A stretch of DNA of 64,000 bases from an uncultured Solirubrobacterales bacterium (GTDB lineage Bacteria; Actinomycetota; Thermoleophilia; Solirubrobacterales; Solirubrobacteraceae). Numbering within the stretch: position 1 is the first letter of the stretch; each line of letters begins with the position of its first letter. The translations under genes were made by a program, and so were the position numbers. The notes below the pieces were generated by a model, which searched no databases, was not told the origin of the DNA, and saw only the letters and a program-made list of their open reading frames with translations. The DNA is taken from NCBI GenBank assembly GCA_963744195.1, contig CAVUSY010000009.1:225720-289719 (forward strand), given 5' to 3'. This document shows positions 26,154 through 35,327 of this stretch, piece by piece.

Positions 26154-28593
26154 ATGTCCGAGGCTCTGCTCGTGCCCGCGATCGCCCCGCCGCGGCGCCT
26201 GGACATTCCCGCGTATTCCCTGACCGCGGCGCTCCGGCTCGAACGCGAGCTGGGGCTGGGGCATCCCATCGCGCAGGTGCTGGTGCGCCGCGGGCTGGCC
26301 GACCCTGAGCTGGCCCGCGCCTTTCTGGCCGCCGGGGAGGCCCATGACCCGATGGCGTTCGCCGGGATCGAGGTCGCTCTGGCCACGATCCGGCGCCACA
26401 TCGAAGCCGGATCCCGGATCACCGTGCACGGCGACTACGACGTCGATGGGATCTGCGCCACCGCGATCATGGTCAGGGCGCTGCGAGCGCTCGGCGCCAA
26501 CACCGGATGGTTTCTCCCCAGCCGCATCGACGACGGGTACGGGCTCGCGGCGGCGACGGTGCAGCGGCTGGCCGATCGCGGCACGGCCCTGATCCTGACG
26601 GTCGACTGCGGCATCACCGCCGTGGAGGAGGTCGCCCAGGCGCGGGCCGCCGGCGTGGAGATCGTCATCACCGACCATCACGCCCCCCGCGCCGACGGTC
26701 AGCTTCCCGCATGCCCGATCGTGCACCCCGCCGTCTGCGGATACCCCTGTCCGCAGCTGTGCGGCACCGCTGTGGCCTACAAGCTCGCCCAGGCCCTCGG
26801 GGCCGACACCGCCGACGACGATCTGGAACTGGTGGCGATGGCGACCGTGGCGGACCTGGTCGGGCTGCTGGGCGAGAACCGCCGCCTCGTGCGCGAAGGC
26901 CTGCACGCGCTCGCCAGCACCGCCAAGCCCGGGCTGCGAGCGCTGATGAGCGTCACCAAGGCCGATCCGAGTGCGCTTGACACCGGCACGGTGGGCTTCC
27001 GGCTGGCGCCGCGGATCAACGCCGCCGGACGGATGCGCCGGGCCGACTCCGGTCTCGAGCTGCTGCTCACCGACGACCCGGCGCGGGCGATGGAGATCGC
27101 GGTCGAGCTCGACGCCGTCAACGCCGAGCGTCGTGCCGTCGAGCAGCGGATTCTGTGGGAGGCGGAGTCGCAGGTGACCCAGCTCGGCCCGCGGACCGCC
27201 TATGTGCTGGCCTGCGAGGACTGGCACCCGGGGGTCATCGGGATCGTCGCGTCACGGATCGTCGAGCACCACCACCGTCCGGCCATCCTGGTCGCGCTGG
27301 ACGGCGAGCTCGGTACCGGCTCCGGGCGCAGCATTGCGGGCTTCGACCTGCTCGGCGGGCTGCATGCCGCCGCCGGCCACCTCGAACGCTACGGCGGCCA
27401 CCGTGCCGCCGCCGGCCTGAGCCTGCGCCGGGAACATCTGGACGACTTTCGGGCCGCCTTCGAGGCGCACGCCGCCGAGGTGCTCACGCCCGAGATGCTC
27501 GAGCCGGTGGAGCGCGTCGACGCGATCGTGTCGGGATCCGAGCTGGGGCTCGGCCTGGCCGAGGAGCTCGAGGCTCTGCAACCGTGCGGAATGGGTAATC
27601 CGGCGCCCCGGCTGCTGGTCCCGGGCGCACGCTTCACCGACGTTCGACCGATGGGGGAGGGACGGCACGCGCGGTTCTCGGTCAGCTCGGGCGGCGCGCG
27701 GGCCAAGGCGGTGGCGTTCGGCTGTGACGGACGGGTCGAGGGTGACGGGGGGCCGGTGGACGCGACCTTCAAGCTCGAGCGCAACGCGTGGAACGGAGCA
27801 GTGGAGCCGAGGCTGGTGCTGCGCCACGCGCAGGTCTGCCGTCCGGCCGGCATCGAGGTGATCGGGGAGCCCGGCGACTATCTCGGGACCGTGTGGGGAG
27901 AGCTCGAGGCGTCGCTGGAGCCGCCCCCGGTACCGGAGCTGTCGCAGGCAGCCGTCAGGACGATCCTCGATCGTCGCGGTGAGAGCCCGCTGGCCGTCCT
28001 CAGCGATGCGCTCGCCGGGGAGGGACCGGTGCTGGCGGTGTGCGCCGACGTTCCGCGCCGGCTCGACGGCCTGCGCGACCCGGGTGGGCGGCTTCTCCCT
28101 GGCGTGCTATCAGGCGCTTGAGCAGGATCCGTCCCTGGCGCCGCGATTTGCGCATCTGGTTGCGCTCGATCCGCCCACCGGCCCGGGCCAGCGGGAGCGT
28201 TTGCGGGCCGGGGCGGGGTTCACCCACCTGACGTGGGGCGAACCTGAGCTACGCTTTGCGGAGCAGATGCATGAGCTTGAGTACGGACTCCGTGCTTCGC
28301 TCGTCGCCATGTACCGGGCCCTCAGGGACCTGGGCCGGGCGGCCGGCGAGGAGCTCGAGCGACTGCTCCGCGGCGACGGTCCGCACGGTCGGTCACCACG
28401 ACTGGCCGCGAGACTGGTCCGGGTGCTCGCGGAGTTGGAGCTCGTCAGCCTCGACCGGGATCTGCCGGCCCTCGCGATCGCAGGCCGGGCGCCCACTGCG
28501 CTCGAGCACTCGCCGTCCTACAGGGTCTATGCCCAGCGATATGAGGACGGACGACGATTCCTGAGCCGCGCAAACCACCCACCAAGCGTCTGA
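26154..28593 (+). CDS. recJ: Single-stranded-DNA exonuclease RecJ, frameshift near 28080
   Basis: GDYDVDG, TVDCG, TDHH, APRINAAGR, GSGRS, GGHRAAAG; the C-terminal region continues in 27979..28593. Confidence 0.93.
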
Positions 28594-28619: not shown

Positions 28620-31007
28620 ATGGGGACTGACCGCGCCGACCGGGCAAAGTCGGGCAACGGCGCCGGACCGGGCGGCATCACGACGCTGGCGGTCTCACGT
28701 GCCCCGGTGGACGGCCTCAGCGGCGGCGACAGCCGCACCCCGGTCGAGCGGGCCGGTCTCTCGCCGCTGGAGCAGGGGCTGCTGGGTGACCTGTTCGCGA
28801 TCGTCGAGGAGCATGCCGACCAGGCGGCCATCGCGATCGACCGCGACCGGGTGGAGGAGGCCTTCGTCTACGCCTGCGTGCACCACGCCGACCAGCGCCG
28901 GCGCTCCGGCGAGGACTTCATCACCCATCCGGTGGGCGTGGCCAAGATCTGCGCCGGCATGCGGCTCGACACCGAGACGCTGTGCGCGGCCCTGCTGCAC
29001 GACACCGTCGAGGACACCAGCGCGTCGCTGACCGAGGTCGCCGCTGCGTTCGGCGATGAGATCGCGGGTCTGGTCGACGGCGTCACCAAGCTGACCGGAC
29101 TGACCTTCCAGTCGCGCGACGAGGCGCAGGCCGAGAACTACCGCAAGATGGTCGTGGCGATGGCCACCGACATCCGGGTGATCCTGATCAAGCTCGCCGA
29201 CCGCCTGCACAACATGCGCACGATCGGCGCGATGCCCAAGCAGAAGCAGATCGAGAAGTCGCGCGAGACGCTCGACATCTACGCCCCGATCGCACACCGC
29301 CTCGGTATCCATGCCATCAAGTGGGAGCTCGAGGACCTGGCCTTCCAGACGCTGCACCCGCGCAAGTACAACGAGATCAAGGGCCTGGTGGCCCAGCAGC
29401 GCGGTGAGCGCGAGCGCTATGTCAACGAGGCCGGCGAGTACGTGGCGGCGGAGCTGGCCGAGCTCGGCATCCACGCCGAGATCTCGGGCCGCGCCAAGCA
29501 CTTCTACTCGATCTACTCCAAGATGACCAAGAAGGGCCGCGAGTTCAACGAGATCTACGACCTGACCGCGATGCGGGTGATCGTCGACTCGGTCAAGGAC
29601 ACCTACGGCGCCGTGGGCGTGATCCACTCGCTGTGGAAGCCGCTGCCGGGCCGCTTCAAGGACTTCATCGCGATGCCCAAGTTCAACATGTACCAGTCGC
29701 TGCACACGACGGTGATCGGTCCCGAGGGCAGGCCGCTGGAGATTCAGATCCGGACCCGGGAGATGCACGATCTGGCCGAGTTCGGGATCGCCGCGCACTG
29801 GATCTACAAGGAGGGCGTGGCCCGCCGGGCGCCGGGGACGGCAAATGACACCTCGCTCGGGCCTCAGGATCAGGACGGCAAGCTCAAGTGGCTGCGCTCG
29901 CTGCTGGACTGGCAGCAGGATCTCAACGACCCGCGCGAATTCATGGAGACCCTCAGGGTCGACCTGTTCGAGGACGAGGTGTTCGTGTTCACGCCCAAGG
30001 GCGAGGTCAAGTCGCTCGCCGCGGGCGCCACGCCGCTGGACTTCGCCTACGAGATCCACACCGACGTCGGCCACCGTTGCGTCGGAGCCAAGGTCAACGG
30101 CAAGATCGTCCCGCTGTCCTACCAGCTTCGTTCGGGGGACATCGTCGAGGTTCTGACCTCCAAGCGCGAGCGCGGCCCCTCACGAGACTGGCTGGCGCTG
30201 GTCAAGACCACTCGGGCCCGGAACAAGATCAAGGCCTGGTTCAAGGCCGAGTCGCGGCGTGACACCGAGCACACCGGTCGCGAGCTGCTCCAGGAGCACC
30301 TCAAGAAGCAGGGCCTCCCGGCCCAGAAGCTGGTCGGCTCGCCGCTGCTCGCCGACGTCATCCGGGAGATGGGCTTCCGCAAGGGGGACGACTTCTACAT
30401 CGCGCTCGGCGGGGCCAAGATCTCCGCCAAGGTCGTCGTCAACAAGGTCATGCAGCGCCTCAAGCAGGGCGAGGCGGCCGAGTCGGAGCCGACCGCGGCC
30501 GACGACCTGCTGCAGACCAACCGCCGCCGCACCCGGCCCACGACCTCCTCGTCGCGCTACGGGATCGCCGTCGAGGGGATCGACGAGGTGATGCTGCGCC
30601 TGGCGAAGTGCTGCCGGCCGGTGCCGGGCGACCCGATCGTCGGCTACATCTCGCTGGGCCGGGGGATCACCATCCACCGCGAGGACTGCCCCAATGTGGC
30701 CGTGCTCAGGAAGGACCCCGACCGCTTCACCCAGGTGTCCTGGGACGGCGACGCCGAGACCTCGTTCCGGGTCGAGATCGAGGTCGACGGCTGGGACCGC
30801 CACCGGCTGCTGGAGGACATGTCGCGGACCTTCGCCGAGGCCGGCATCAACATCCTCGACGCGCACTGCGCCGTCAACCACCCGATGGTCAAGAACCGGT
30901 TCGTGGTCGAGGTGGGGGACACGCGGACGCTGGATCAGGCGATCAACCGTCTACGCAACATCGACGCGGTGTTCGACGCCTATCGCGTCACGCCGGGCTC
31001 CGGCTGA
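28620..31007 (+). CDS. relA: Bifunctional (p)ppGpp synthetase/hydrolase Rel
   Basis: LLHDTVED hydrolase, KLADRLHNMRT, RFKD, YQSLHT, TGS, CC...HREDC and ACT domains. Start position uncertain. Confidence 0.96.
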   Translation: MGTDRADRAKSGNGAGPGGITTLAVSRAPVDGLSGGDSRTPVERAGLSPLEQGLLGDLFAIVEEHADQAAIAIDRDRVEEAFVYACVHHADQRRRSGEDFITHPVGVAKICAGMRLDTETLCAALLHDTVEDTSASLTEVAAAFGDEIAGLVDGVTKLTGLTFQSRDEAQAENYRKMVVAMATDIRVILIKLADRLHNMRTIGAMPKQKQIEKSRETLDIYAPIAHRLGIHAIKWELEDLAFQTLHPRKYNEIKGLVAQQRGERERYVNEAGEYVAAELAELGIHAEISGRAKHFYSIYSKMTKKGREFNEIYDLTAMRVIVDSVKDTYGAVGVIHSLWKPLPGRFKDFIAMPKFNMYQSLHTTVIGPEGRPLEIQIRTREMHDLAEFGIAAHWIYKEGVARRAPGTANDTSLGPQDQDGKLKWLRSLLDWQQDLNDPREFMETLRVDLFEDEVFVFTPKGEVKSLAAGATPLDFAYEIHTDVGHRCVGAKVNGKIVPLSYQLRSGDIVEVLTSKRERGPSRDWLALVKTTRARNKIKAWFKAESRRDTEHTGRELLQEHLKKQGLPAQKLVGSPLLADVIREMGFRKGDDFYIALGGAKISAKVVVNKVMQRLKQGEAAESEPTAADDLLQTNRRRTRPTTSSSRYGIAVEGIDEVMLRLAKCCRPVPGDPIVGYISLGRGITIHREDCPNVAVLRKDPDRFTQVSWDGDAETSFRVEIEVDGWDRHRLLEDMSRTFAEAGINILDAHCAVNHPMVKNRFVVEVGDTRTLDQAINRLRNIDAVFDAYRVTPGSG

Positions 31008-31026: not shown

Positions 31027-31902
31027 GTGAGCGGCGGCTCCGTCCTGGTCGTCGGGTCCATCAACGAGGACGTCGTTCTGCGCGTCGCCAAAGCGCCCGC
31101 GCCGGGCGAGACGCTGATGGCCACCGGTATGAGCCGTCAGCCCGGCGGCAAGGGGGCCAACCAGGCGGTCGCCGCGGCGTGCGCCGGCGCCGCTGTGTAC
31201 ATGCTCGGCCGCGTCGGCGACGATCCGGCCGGTGCCCGCATGCTCGAGGCGCTGCGCGCGGCCGGAGTGCAGACCGACCACATCGAGGTGATGCCGGATG
31301 TGGCCACCGGCACGGCGTACATCACGGTGACACCCGACGGCGAGAACACGATCGTGCTCGACCCCGGAGCGAACTCGCGCCTGTCCCCGGCCGACGTGGA
31401 CGCCGCCCGCGACGCGCTGGCGTCGGCCCGGGTGATGCTCGCTCAGCTGGAGGTGCCGGTCGACACGGTTGCGGCCGCGGTGCAGCTCGCCGTCGCCAGC
31501 GGGGTGAGACCCGTGGTGACGCTGTCGCCGGCGCAGGCCGTACCAGGAGAGCTCCTGAGCGGGCTTGACCCCCTGCTGGTCAACCAGCCCGAGGCGGAGT
31601 TCCTGCTCGACGACGATCAGGCGCTTGATGATCCCGAGCAGGCGGCCGGTCGATTGCTCGAGCTCGGACCTCGCTCGGTGGTGATCACCCTGGGGGCCGA
31701 AGGGGCGGTGTTCGCCGATCACTCCGGCCTGGGCCGGTTACCGGCCCAGCCGGTGGAGCACGTGGTCGACACCACCGGGGCCGGCGACGCCTTCGCCGGT
31801 GCTCTGGCGGCAGAGCTGGCCGGCGGCGGCGGGCTCGCTGACGGGGTCAAGGCAGGCCTGGCCGCCGCCGCCCTCGCGGTCGGGCGGGCCGGGGCCCGGT
31901 GA
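31027..31902 (+). CDS. rbsK: Ribokinase / PfkB family kinase
   Basis: VVGSINED, PGGKGANQA, QLEVP, DTTGAGDAF. Confidence 0.85.
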   Translation: MSGGSVLVVGSINEDVVLRVAKAPAPGETLMATGMSRQPGGKGANQAVAAACAGAAVYMLGRVGDDPAGARMLEALRAAGVQTDHIEVMPDVATGTAYITVTPDGENTIVLDPGANSRLSPADVDAARDALASARVMLAQLEVPVDTVAAAVQLAVASGVRPVVTLSPAQAVPGELLSGLDPLLVNQPEAEFLLDDDQALDDPEQAAGRLLELGPRSVVITLGAEGAVFADHSGLGRLPAQPVEHVVDTTGAGDAFAGALAAELAGGGGLADGVKAGLAAAALAVGRAGAR

Positions 31903-31924: not shown

Positions 31925-34273
31925 TCAGCGGCCTGCCTCGGGCTCCCGCGGCCGTCCGGGCGGCCGCCGTCCGGGCGGCGGGTGGGTCCGAGGCGGTCCA
32001 CCCGCCCGGTCGATCGCCGCTGACCCGCGTGGCAGCGGCAGGACCCGCAGCCTCGTCGCCTGCGCCACCGGCGTCTTGGTGATCATCACCGCCTGCCCGG
32101 TCGGCAGGGATTTGATCTCGTTCGGATGCACGACGAATCGCTCGACCTGCCGGCGACTCCCGCGGTAGGAGCCGCGGCCGAGCGGGCCCTGGATGTTGCG
32201 GGTCTCCTCCCACACCTGTTCGGTGCCGATCATCTGCGCGATCGTCTGGGCCGAGGCGGGGACGTCCTGGCGATGGGCCAGCTTGAGCGACGTGATCCCG
32301 AGGACCTGATCACGGAATCCGGGCGCGGCGCGGTCCAGGTCGGCGAGCTCCTGGGTCGCCAGCAGCACCGCCGCACCCGCCTCCCGGCCGCGGGCCAGGA
32401 GCGCGAGCAGATTGTCGGCGCCCAGGGCGGAGAACTCGTCGATCGCGATCATCGCCTGTGCCGGCGCCTGGCCCGCCTCGTCGGTGAGCGACAGGCGGTG
32501 GCCCACTTGGCTGACCAGATCCTGGATCACGAGCGTGCCCAGCTGCGCTCCGAGCTTGCCGTATACGCTCGAGTTGAGGCTGAACAGGACCACGTCGCTG
32601 CCGTCCAGAGTGGCCCGCAGGTCGATCGTCACCTCTCCGGGCCGCGCCGGCGCGAGGTAGGGGCCGGCGTGGGATTCGCTTACGATCGCCAGGCGCGTGC
32701 CGAGCCCGCGGATCGCGCTCAGCTGGTCGGGAGTGAGGCTGGCCAGGTAATCCTGGACCCGCTCACAGAGCGGGCCGCTCAGGTGCCTGAGCATGGCCGA
32801 CAGCCGGCGCGGCTCCATCAGCTCCACCACCTCCTGGAGCTGGGTGCCCCGCCCTGGCCGCGCCGCATGCACGACCTGGATGACCGTCTGCACGTAGCGC
32901 TCCGCCGCGCGCTGATAGTGGGGCTCGGTGAATCGCTCGGTGGCGATCAGCTTGTCCTTGAGCGAGGTCGCGTTGCCGTGTTCGAGCGGGTTCCAATGAC
33001 CGGGGCCGTCCGGGGTCCAGAGCCGGAAGGGACGACCGGCGAGCGCTGCGGCCTGGCGGAGCTCATGGGCGAAGGCAGGCGAGCCCTTGAGGTCGATGGC
33101 GACCACCGGGCGTCCGCGGCGGATCTGCTGACACAGAATGCCCAGCAATGTCGTCGACTTGCCGGCTCCGCTCGCGCCCAGGATCAGGCCGTGGGCGGCG
33201 AGCTGGCGCTCGCTGAGATGCACCGGTCGACCGTGATCATCGACCCCGAGCACGACCCCGTCCCCGGGCGCGGTCGCCTCGCCGCGTCGACGCCGCGCGG
33301 CGCGGCGTATCGCCACCACGGCGGTCACCGCCACCGACGTGGCCGCCATGGCCGCGACCGCCCAGGCGAACGGGAGCACGATCAACACGGCGAAGGCCGG
33401 AAGCGTCCAGTAGGGGCGGCGGGGTGGGGGAAGGGCGTACCTCATCGGGTGCGGTCGACAGGTCGTGCCGGCCGTCGCTGCGCGATGGCCGTCGCGGGTT
33501 CGCTGGCGGGTCAGCGTCTGGTCCGGCCGCCGATCGCCCTCACCGAAGCGCACCCGCTGGACGTGCACCAGTGAGGAGAGGCCGAGCCTGGAGGCGGAGC
33601 GACTCACCGCGCGCCCGACCGACGGCGATTGGACCAGGTAGACGACGGCGTCGATGCGAGCGTCCGCCCCGTAGCCGGCCAGGATCCCCTCCCGCCGGGG
33701 GCGCGACTTGGACGAGAGCTCCAGCTCGAGCGCGACCCGGTGTCCGGACTCCATCTCGAGGATCAGATCGGGGTAGTGCAGTCGATCCCGGCCGCCCGGA
33801 CCAACGCCTCCGAGCCGAACCCCGTATCGGTCCGCACGGGACTGGGCGCGACCATCGTGGGACCGCAGGTGGCGCTCGGAGACCACCTCTCGCACCGGAC
33901 CGAAGGCACCGTCGCGCGCTGCGAGCCACAGCCAGGCCAGGCCGATGTCGTGACGATGGCAGCGGAGATCGACCGCGCGCGGCTTCGGAAGGTCGCTGGC
34001 GATCGCGCCCAGACCGGTGCGCGAGACCTGATACCAGCCCGGCGCAGCGTGAAGCTGCCGGTCCCGAACCACATATCCGGCCTGGCACAACAGGCGCAGC
34101 CGGGCGTAGGCCGCTCCGGCTGTGACCCCGAGCAGCACCTGTATGTGGCTGCTCAGCAAGAACCGGTGCGCGGCCATGAACGAGAGCAGGTCATGGTCGC
34201 GGTCGGTGAGATGAACCCCGCGTCTTCTCCGGATGGTCCGCCTGACGGCTCGAGCAGGGGCGTCGTGTTCCAC
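31925..34273 (-). mobile_element. Orphan mobilisation module: MOB_C/Replic_Relax-type relaxase (about 33446-34273) plus TrwB/TraD-type coupling protein (31925-33445), one open frame
   Basis: N-part: LTDRD wHTH-like start and PD..x12..ELELSSK PD-(D/E)xK motif. C-part: TM segment(s), Walker A GASGAGKS, IDLKG, WNPL, Walker B IAIDEF, LATQ, VHPNEIKSL. Confidence 0.8.
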
Positions 34274-34337
34274 ACTGCATTGAGGCCGGCGCGAGCCGAT
34301 TGTCGCCCCCCGGGCTCAGCCCGGCGGCGCCCGGGAA

Positions 34338-35327
34338 TCAGGCCACGATGAGCATGGTATGTGGCTTGGCCGAGAAGGCGGCCTCTTTCACCTCGCCGAT
34401 GTAGTCGCCGTCGACCTGCAGCGGGAGGGCGCGGTCGTCGAGCGAGCGGACCCCGAGTCCCGCGAGCGCGCTGAACGGATGCACCCGGCGGTGGCGCGCC
34501 ACCCGCGCCCGGCGCGACAGCGCCCGCCACGTGATCGTGGGGATGTCGATCGGGCTGGCGCGCTTGAGCACCACCCCGGCCAGATCGCCGCTGTCGAGCG
34601 TTGCGCCTTCGCCCATGTGGACCGCGCGCTGGCCGAAGAACGTGTACGGCGCGGCGTTCTGGACGATCACCGTCACCCCGGCGATCCGCTCGCCGTTGAG
34701 GTCGGCCTCCAGCCGCGGCGGCCGCAGCAGGTAGCGCCGGTTGAACGTTCTGATCCCCGTCCACGCGTAGTACCACTCGCCCATGCGGACCTTCAGGCGT
34801 GGGTGGGCGTCGACCTGCTGCACCACGCTCGCATCGAGTCCGACTCCGGCCGAGAACAGAAAGTAACGGTCGTTGACGAGGCCGACGTCAACCCGCCGCG
34901 GGTGCCAGTCGTGGGCCAGCCCCAGCAGGTGCTCGGTCGCGTCGACCACGTCGGTTGGAATCCCCAACATCCGGCAGTACACGTTGGTGCGCCCGCCCGG
35001 CAGGCAGCAGAGCGGCGTCTCGGAGCCAACCAGCCCGTTGGCGGCCTCGTTGACGGTCCCGTCGCCGCCGAAGGCCACCACCACGTCGTAACCCTGGCGG
35101 GCCGCCTCGCGACAGAGCTCGGTGGCGTGATCGCGGGCTTCGGTATCGACGGCGTCGACCTGATAGCGGCCGCGCAGCGCGTACACCACCAGGTTCTTGA
35201 GCCGGTCGGAGACCGTGGTGGCATACGGGTTGACGATCACCAGCATGCGCCGGCTGGGCACGCCGGACTGCTCGAGCCCGACCATGGCCTCGAGGCGGTC
35301 CAGCGGATCGGTCGAGGCGGTCGCCAT
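34338..35327 (-). CDS. Diacylglycerol kinase family lipid kinase
   Basis: IVNPYA, FGGDGTVNEAANG, LPGGRTN, LQVDGD. Confidence 0.9.
   Translation of the reverse strand: MATASTDPLDRLEAMVGLEQSGVPSRRMLVIVNPYATTVSDRLKNLVVYALRGRYQVDAVDTEARDHATELCREAARQGYDVVVAFGGDGTVNEAANGLVGSETPLCCLPGGRTNVYCRMLGIPTDVVDATEHLLGLAHDWHPRRVDVGLVNDRYFLFSAGVGLDASVVQQVDAHPRLKVRMGEWYYAWTGIRTFNRRYLLRPPRLEADLNGERIAGVTVIVQNAAPYTFFGQRAVHMGEGATLDSGDLAGVVLKRASPIDIPTITWRALSRRARVARHRRVHPFSALAGLGVRSLDDRALPLQVDGDYIGEVKEAAFSAKPHTMLIVA

Follow-up and report, generated by a model that had tools for sequence, protein, structure and literature searches.

We analyzed a 64,000-nucleotide stretch of DNA (the window) from an uncultured bacterium of the Solirubrobacteraceae (GenBank assembly GCA_963744195.1, contig CAVUSY010000009.1, positions 225,720 to 289,719 of the forward strand), in which the gene of a MOB_C-like relaxase is followed by that of a type IV coupling protein. 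We regard it as near certain that this relaxase-coupling module is a domesticated core operon, and it may act together with an unlinked type IV secretion system (T4SS) in the donation of chromosomal DNA. An earlier note, made from the sequence alone, had described the pair as an orphan module embedded in the core genome. The features of the locus are the following.

31925..34273, minus strand: relaxase and coupling protein, a single 782-aa open frame in this assembly
33442..34273, minus strand: MOB_C-like relaxase gene, with a winged helix (aa ~15-95) and a PD-(D/E)xK domain (aa ~100-246) that holds D169, E183, E185 and K189
33445-33442, minus strand: ATGA containing the TGA that is probably the natural relaxase stop, out of frame in this assembly
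31925..33445, minus strand: type IV coupling protein gene (TrwB/TraD type), with an internal ATG start at 33445
33305..33412, minus strand: hydrophobic stretch predicted to anchor the coupling protein in the membrane (fused-frame aa ~288-323; from hydropathy only)
33152..33178, minus strand: Walker A motif GASGAGKST (aa 366 of the fused frame)
32432..32443, minus strand: Walker B motif IDEF (D612 of the fused frame)
33460: probable extra base fusing the relaxase and coupling frames; one base fewer in a 151-bp contig of run X3
28620..31007, plus strand: relA/spoT, the conserved left flank (homology, and synteny in relatives)
31027..31902, plus strand: PfkB ribokinase gene (rbsK), a local insertion not seen at the relA-dagK site in the relative loci
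34338..35327, minus strand: DAGK-family lipid kinase gene (dagK), the conserved right flank (homology, and synteny in relatives)

The pair had been placed between a ribokinase and a lipid kinase, and the gaps are indeed only 22 bp to rbsK and 64 bp to dagK, but the ribokinase is the local insertion and the conserved left neighbor is relA. Both of the proteins that had been called are present, although they share one frame here. The fusion is probably an assembly indel, the alternative being a private frameshift, because the genes are separate in relatives, a 151-bp contig of run X3 (depth 2.6) lacks base 33460, and frame changes are common in this assembly (in 17 of 133 genes tested). In all 23 relative loci the relaxase is closed by its own stop and is separate from the coupling gene, as it likewise is in an 84%-identical relative, so we rejected a natural fusion. 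The relaxase stop overlaps the coupling gene as ATGA or GTGA in 21 of the 23, and the overlapping ATGA is retained here. Within the window recJ (26154-28593), ~830 aa in relatives, is also split by a frameshift, one of many probable indel errors of the assembly. The host-like composition that had been claimed holds for the coupling protein (GC content at third codon positions, GC3, at the 47th percentile) but less so for the relaxase, which lies at the low end (GC3 9th percentile, codon score 4th percentile).

A MOB_C-like relaxase and its coupling protein

The first ~246 residues of the relaxase were modeled with a pLDDT (predicted local distance difference test) of 92.9 as a winged helix and then a restriction-like domain, which confirms the fold called in the earlier note. 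The winged helix has a MarR-like structural match (Z 10.6, rmsd 3.3, 77 aligned), while the PD-(D/E)xK domain best matches the LlaBIII nuclease with a middling Z of 8.2 (rmsd 3.7, 116 aligned) and its top matches are mostly restriction-like nucleases. Searching solved structures by sequence and with Foldseek gave only helix-turn-helix (HTH) or weak matches. The motif PDLILEMESGHRVALELELSSKSRPRR is present in the frame as had been noted, close to the MOB_C signature D..E-x-E-x3-K-x3-R and without the Tyr that follows it: D169, E183, E185 and K189 are found in 27/27 copies and R193 in 24/27, while position 194 is R in 18, L in 7 and M in 2. Invariant in all 27 are H108, Y167, D169, E183, E185, K189, Y201 and Y212.

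When aligned to a MOBC-typed plasmid protein of E. faecalis, at a low HHalign probability of 8.8%, the residues D152/E170/E172/K176/R180 correspond to D169/E183/E185/K189/R193 of the relaxase, and Y181 aligns to R194. We take the first five to be the catalytic set of TraX, and Y181 of TraX is reportedly important for the relaxase. The relaxase scores 22.6 bits against the MobC_subf profile (NF041423), whose cut-off is 200. Since the module resembles MOB_C modules while these two strict features of membership, the Tyr and the profile score, are lacking, we call the gene MOB_C-like and would not place it in MOB_C proper. A review (PMC12857230) describes TraX as having an N-terminal winged helix and a restriction-like active site, with no covalent intermediate observed.

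The profile searches that had been proposed gave a divided outcome. The coupling protein exceeds the Pfam cut-offs for TrwB_AAD_bind (46 bits) and TraG-D_C (37 bits) and, having also the Walker A and B motifs and the N-terminal hydrophobic anchor, is the membrane-anchored TrwB/TraD ATPase that had been predicted; Replic_Relax was weak in 10 of 35 relaxase homologues and gave no match for this copy.

A full-length homologue of the relaxase (HHalign 99.6%, 30% identity, 206 columns) lies on the Brachybacterium plasmid NZ_CP107021.1 (L300:815-1531), where it heads a complete T4SS operon and is followed directly by a coupling protein. It also lacks the Tyr. This plasmid has no other annotated relaxase and is typed non-mobilizable, so the relaxase subfamily is missed by current typing. 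Clusters resembling integrative and conjugative elements (ICEs) in genomes G042 and G161, from other members of the Solirubrobacteraceae, carry the same subfamily directly before a coupling protein, and in G042 the pair is near VirB4, PrgI, VirB6 and pilin genes. On the plasmid and in both clusters all parts are on one mobile unit, whereas here they are split over fixed chromosomal sites.

The module is fixed and vertically inherited

We found the pair in 26/28 genomes of the same genus (22/24 and 4/4), and the two misses are only 75% and 62% complete. After two extra non-syntenic copies were set aside from 24 genus loci, 21 of the 22 orthologous loci have the relA-dagK bracket, some with inserted genes, and the remaining one keeps the dagK side only. 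Four fragmentary loci fit the relA-dagK site as far as their contigs reach, one of them without dagK, and a separate scan, which may overlap the first set, found both flanks in 16/18 loci. In the five outgroup genera relA and dagK are adjacent without the pair (5/5).

Pairwise identity of the pair among relatives is 38-92%. Under a codon model, dN/dS is 0.107 for the relaxase and 0.094 for the coupling protein, compared with 0.117 for recJ, 0.060 for dagK, 0.044 for thrC and 0.028 for relA, although synonymous sites are partly saturated. In the 19 genomes with all genes, the module tree and linked core genes agree on 10 of 16 splits, against a random mean of 0.3, and conflict strongly once; the patristic correlation with an unlinked two-gene set is weak, at 0.28. 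Seven recombinase queries gave no match in the window and one match in 24 relaxase-site loci, ~7 kb off, in a search whose positive set was mostly the queries' own loci. No convincing flanking repeat was seen at the pair, in keeping with the earlier note.

With no integrase or att repeats beside it, a distribution that is not patchy and a tree that follows core genes, the module lacks the features of an integrative element. The domestication that the earlier note had suggested is supported by the fixed site, the vertical tree, purifying selection and the host-type promoter described below. Mobile homologues do exist, but the refuting case that had been laid out, with homologues only in ICEs or plasmids and selection relaxed, is not what we observed. 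In the coupling-protein tree, integrase-linked copies are among the nearest relatives of the genus clade, and mobile homologues of the pair are its likely source. Relaxase-coupling modules are usually read as marks of mobile elements, while here such a module is a core, selected and host-regulated operon across a soil genus.

An unlinked T4SS operon and a third fixed locus

Two further fixed loci lie elsewhere in this genome (G000).

G000:C2:517396-523831 (L065:6397-13304): SCO6880-type T4SS operon, with pilin (DUF6112), SCO6881-like, SCO6880, short VirB4 and VirD4 genes in order
G000:C24:270855-277408 (L130:6856-13409): third fixed locus, with an HTH_17 regulator, a 157-aa gene, a secreted-looking protein, tatA, DprA and a phosphoribosyltransferase (PRTase)

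SCO6880 was called above its cut-off, the VirB4, SCO6881 and VirD4 calls rest on sub-cut-off NCBIfam scores with Pfam support, and the pilin is a DUF6112 protein; the core set of VirB4, VirB3/PrgI, VirB6, pilin and VirD4 is thus complete. An orthologue of this VirB4 was found in 26/28 relatives (79-91% identity in 25, one frameshifted), and any match at all in only 4/44 other genomes. Absences of VirB4 are soft, because TIGR00929 missed a real VirB4 of this genome on contig C10. Within the limits of the contigs, gene order is constant in 27 loci, which are flanked by an oxidoreductase in 20 cases and, on the opposite side, by a glutamate decarboxylase in 23; no recombinase match was found in any of the 27. 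The dN/dS of the operon is 0.03-0.09. Its tree has 10/16 splits in common with unlinked relA-region genes (random 0.3; r 0.88; no strong conflict), 8/16 with the relaxase module (one pair accounts for all three conflicts) and 8/16 with its own neighbors (four conflicts); as a yardstick, two core gene sets share 8/16.

The orphan status of the pair and the idea of a minimal module that borrows a channel are therefore not upheld, since the genus has its own fixed T4SS operon elsewhere and T4SS genes of this genome also lie in a patchy C10 ICE and in a C2 remnant. The former has an 899-aa VirB4 and a hydrolase-like gene (G000:C10:11467-22706), and the latter is a degraded SCO6880-type ICE at C2:700000-720000.

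A divergent gene for an ECF (extracytoplasmic function)-like sigma factor lies beside the T4SS operon, and AATT repeats there form a conserved, AT-rich inverted pattern surrounding a CTAGCA-N15-TGCTAG palindrome. The AATT repeats (TCTAATTGAGACTAA) precede the pilin gene in 24/24 upstream regions, and the only other strong site in this genome, C24:271626, is in the third locus before the HTH_17 and 157-aa genes, across from the gene of the large secreted-looking protein, with tatA, dprA and the PRTase gene further downstream. This site was the best match in 21/21 loci of the third type and absent from six mobile clusters. The 157-aa family is present in 28/28 relatives, and homologues of the HTH, 157-aa and secreted proteins occur in the ICE remnant on C2. 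With its inverted and direct repeats the AATT region is a possible origin of transfer (oriT), but we favor an operator because the region lies between divergent genes and recurs before the HTH_17 gene. BldC binds AATTXXXX(C) direct repeats (PMC5859096), and these resemble the T4SS operator; by likeness to the BldC consensus, the HTH_17 protein is predicted to bind the AATT repeats.

The relaxase promoter and its regulon

Between the relaxase start and dagK we noted a conserved promoter motif and, abutting it, the hairpin that the earlier note had named.

34302..34311, minus strand: upstream (-35-like) half, GGGGGGCGAC
34281..34285, minus strand: downstream (-10-like) half, CCTCA, 7 nt before the GTG start, which predicts a leaderless transcript
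34310..34324: hairpin CCGGGCT-C-AGCCCGG

The hairpin had been offered as a nick site. It is present, but shuffled versions of the 81-nt stretch fold just as well (z 0.33), and the hairpin is not evident by eye in relatives' upstream sequences, so we did not retain it as an oriT.

The motif GGGGGGYGAA-N15/16-GCTCT precedes the relaxase in 24/28 upstream regions. This genome has five sites of at least 18 bits, against none in two shuffles, and weaker matches are at chance level. At four of the five a start codon lies 7 nt further on; the genes that begin there encode the relaxase (itself used in training the matrix), a response regulator and two small proteins. The motif precedes the orthologue of this response regulator in 13/13 genus loci and, with the first matrix, in 3/7 loci of other genera. 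The two small genes occur in only 3/28 relatives, which argues against their being parts of the system, and the ECF-like sigma factor beside the T4SS is an unlikely reader of the promoter, since genome G049 has the motif and only a 32% match to the sigma factor.

The exact pattern occurs 8, 8 and 4 times in three genomes that have the competence gene comEC (0, 0 and 1 with a reversed control) and was not found in G083 or G188. In all three ComEC-positive genomes with matches it heads the cpaF Tad pilus operon. Judged from sequence alone, it also precedes genes like a REP-associated transposase, Uma2 nuclease and AbiEi. These sites (L181-L200) look like a family-wide alternative-sigma-like regulon of cpaF, regulator, transposase-, Uma2- and AbiEi-like genes, all leaderless with the 7-nt spacing. 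At G000:C9:45082-46603 (L128:7083-8604) the response regulator and a kinase lie behind a relaxase-type promoter directly before mraZ, and in the ComEC-positive genera a cpaF-tadBC operon lies between that regulator/kinase and mraZ. The promoter and the AATT operator give two conserved regulatory motifs in a poorly known bacterial group.

Absence of ComEC and Tad, and a second clade with a fixed pair

ComEC was found in 0/22 relatives and in 0/13 genomes of the genera g14, g20, g30 and g36, making 0/35 genomes that have a fixed pair, compared with 18/19 other genomes of the family. It was also not found in this genome, which is 88% complete and where leuS, a 158-aa gene and holA are adjacent, so that comEA and comEC are missing in place. 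The Tad ATPase orthologue, defined by identity and position, is confined to the 18 ComEC-positive genomes, every one of which has it, and 8/23 genus genomes have a paralogue of 50-57% identity. Fragments of tad-like genes lie at a contig end of this genome (G000:C7:159600-162559) and are unlike the family cpaF orthologue (52% over 75 aa). In Micrococcus luteus transformation takes place via Tad pili and ComEA/EC, with an HTH_17 regulator (PMC8467076).

In g14, g20, g30, g36 and g45 a second fixed cluster lies beside hrcA-dnaJ (L045-L047, L050-L055, L057, L058, L107). It comprises ssb, the relaxase, the coupling protein, a response regulator, a 250-330 aa gene and a 1060-1340 aa VirD4-Replic_Relax fusion, and a GTCCCAAGCG..TAG motif is conserved before ssb. 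Some members have patchy VirB4 clusters. A CarB+RpoB tree of 31 taxa rejects a single clade for all carriers lacking ComEC (approximately unbiased test, p 0.001) but does not reject the grouping of g14, g20, g30 and g36 as one clade (p 0.07); the replicates numbered 2000, which is below the advised count. In the coupling-protein tree the two fixed groups lie beside different non-fixed copies. Branch supports came from FastTree. The pair thus appears to have been captured in the Solirubrobacteraceae at least twice separately.

A proposed role in chromosomal DNA donation

Our best single reading, which we hold at a probability of about 0.45, is that the pair and the T4SS operon carry out a domesticated, host-regulated donation of chromosomal DNA that replaces transformation. 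The pair would have come from an integrative element, taken over by an ancestor of the genus and then stripped of its integrase. An alternative sigma factor, which elsewhere would drive the Tad pilus operon, would switch the pair on, and the winged helix would pick nick sites dispersed on the chromosome or bind with low specificity. The relaxase is predicted to nick chromosomal DNA, making the pair the donor half of a host-run transfer system, and the coupling protein would feed single-stranded DNA to the SCO6880/VirB4 channel or to that of a visiting ICE. The recipient would recombine the transferred DNA, and natural transformation would be replaced as the route of gene exchange. Transfer of chromosomal DNA in the manner of Hfr (high frequency of recombination) strains, as the earlier note had raised, is plausible.

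We put forward a wider proposal only tentatively, as more doubtful than the reading above: twice or more in the Solirubrobacteraceae, the Tad pilus and ComEC transformation may have been lost and replaced by a host-encoded, conjugation-derived chromosome donation, whose parts would here be scattered over three core loci without integrase or oriT and wired to the former promoter of the uptake pilus. Presence of the pair, matched by a fixed T4SS, goes hand in hand with absence of competence, which opens to test both a lineage trading transformation for its own conjugation machine and the role of a chromosomal T4SS without an adjacent relaxase.

Several observations weigh against the donation reading. 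The pair and the T4SS are under different promoters, the relaxase motif being found at no T4SS locus and nowhere in the second clade and the AATT operator at no relaxase locus, so co-occurrence is the only tie between the halves. The T4SS operon encodes its own VirD4. No homologue of a wall hydrolase-like or VirB8-like protein was found in this genome with queries from three related mobile clusters, no search at the family level having been made. In G176, which is 96% complete, the pair is present and no VirB4 orthologue was found, while G050 lacks both ComEC and the pair. No conserved non-coding candidate for oriT was found at the relaxase locus, where only the promoter is conserved upstream, and in 20/22 loci the coupling gene ends less than 60 bp from its neighbor, leaving no room for one. 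The relaxase lacks the Tyr at the position of TraX Y181. The promoter motif precedes comEA/comEC in 0/13 loci, which rules it out as a full competence promoter. At the third locus the dprA-PRTase pair matches the ShosA/ShosT (ShosTA) defence models, and the genome has a second dprA. In the second clade VirB4 was found in 3/14 genomes and in 0/5 of g36, though these absences are soft. With only two or three independent events, the correlation with ComEC is too small for statistics.

Some of these points speak for a channel-free role. The pair would then be a membrane-anchored DNA motor and nickase working inside the cell in segregation, unlinking or repair, much like the Streptomyces cmdABCDEF genes (PMC2782261), and the T4SS would have a separate job. 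The second clade keeps the pair and the VirD4-Replic_Relax fusion fixed, mostly without VirB4, and the separate promoters and the oriT not found at the locus point the same way. However, the pair is missing from most genera of the family and hence dispensable for division, and this explanation, which we consider possible but improbable, leaves the ComEC/Tad pattern and the promoter shared with cpaF unexplained. The restriction-like fold of the relaxase could instead point to a defence or surveillance module, in which the ATPase would load or activate a nuclease that cuts mobile DNA, whether incoming or resident; the same promoter motif precedes the transposase-, Uma2- and AbiEi-like genes, the coupling domain matches PADLOC mad8 at 1e-14 (a generic ATPase match), and the ShosTA match of the third locus can be added. 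Defence genes are usually patchy in distribution, whereas the pair is near-universal, single-site and vertical. The relaxase has no PADLOC match, no PADLOC 2.0 system is matched by both proteins of the pair, and the nearest context outside the genus is conjugative, all of which makes a defence role unlikely.

The pair could also hitch-hike, using visiting ICEs or mobilizing small oriT-bearing islands in trans, in the way of CloDF13-type elements, while the fixed T4SS exports proteins via its own VirD4. The second clade, without a fixed channel and with patchy VirB4 clusters in some members, is consistent with this, as are two features of this genome, its patchy C10 ICE and the second relaxase-family gene (C18), and T4SSs without a nearby relaxase are often protein exporters (PMC3158045). 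We nevertheless find hitch-hiking quite unlikely, as selection of recJ strength across the genus is hard to sustain from rare visitors and a cognate oriT was not found. A stranded, decaying integrative mobilizable element is largely refuted and very improbable. It would account for the integrase-linked copies among the closest relatives, the frameshifts in this copy and in the coupling genes of two relatives, and a relaxase pairwise dN/dS that ranges from 0.12 to 0.51, the upper value coming from one saturated pair; against it, the active site is invariant, model dN/dS is ~0.1, the promoter is conserved, the pair is kept in 26/28 relatives, and frameshifts are common throughout this assembly.

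Relation to known systems

The MOB_C modules of pAD1 (TraX/TraW) and CloDF13 (MobC/MobB) have the same winged helix and PD-(D/E)xK domain, the motif residues and a related coupling protein partner. In contrast to them, the module described here is chromosomal, fixed and vertical, has no Tyr after the Arg and has no adjoining oriT. The fixed T4SS operon has the gene order of actinobacterial SCO6880/SCO6881/DUF6112 T4SS clusters, but it is inherited vertically, without a recombinase match or an adjacent relaxase, and the queries from the three mobile clusters found no hydrolase homologue.

Conjugation-derived parts kept by the host have precedents in Streptomyces cmdABCDEF, the T4SS of Patescibacteria, the gonococcal genetic island, TraB and mycobacterial distributive transfer (PMC2782261, PMC12102498, PMC12857230, PMC3158045, PMC3218068, PMC12378983; excerpts of each). 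The Patescibacteria T4SSs are mostly without a relaxase, which is present here; the gonococcal genetic island is one mobile block feeding natural competence, unlike the split fixed loci of this genome; and Streptomyces TraB and the mycobacterial ESX systems use no relaxase. In contrast to the Tad/ComEA/ComEC system of Micrococcus luteus, the Tad orthologue and ComEC were not found here. A split relaxase-coupling protein pair and T4SS together with ComEC loss is not described in the excerpts of the precedents compared, and we found no description of this system or of its pairing with competence loss in the literature covered, which left out most subscription journals.

Two other relaxase-family genes were seen in this genome. 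One (C18:696-2142) lies beside a gene of the 157-aa family at a contig end, and the other, a frameshifted Replic_Relax gene, is carried by a serine-recombinase element located after smpB (C20:549571-554335).

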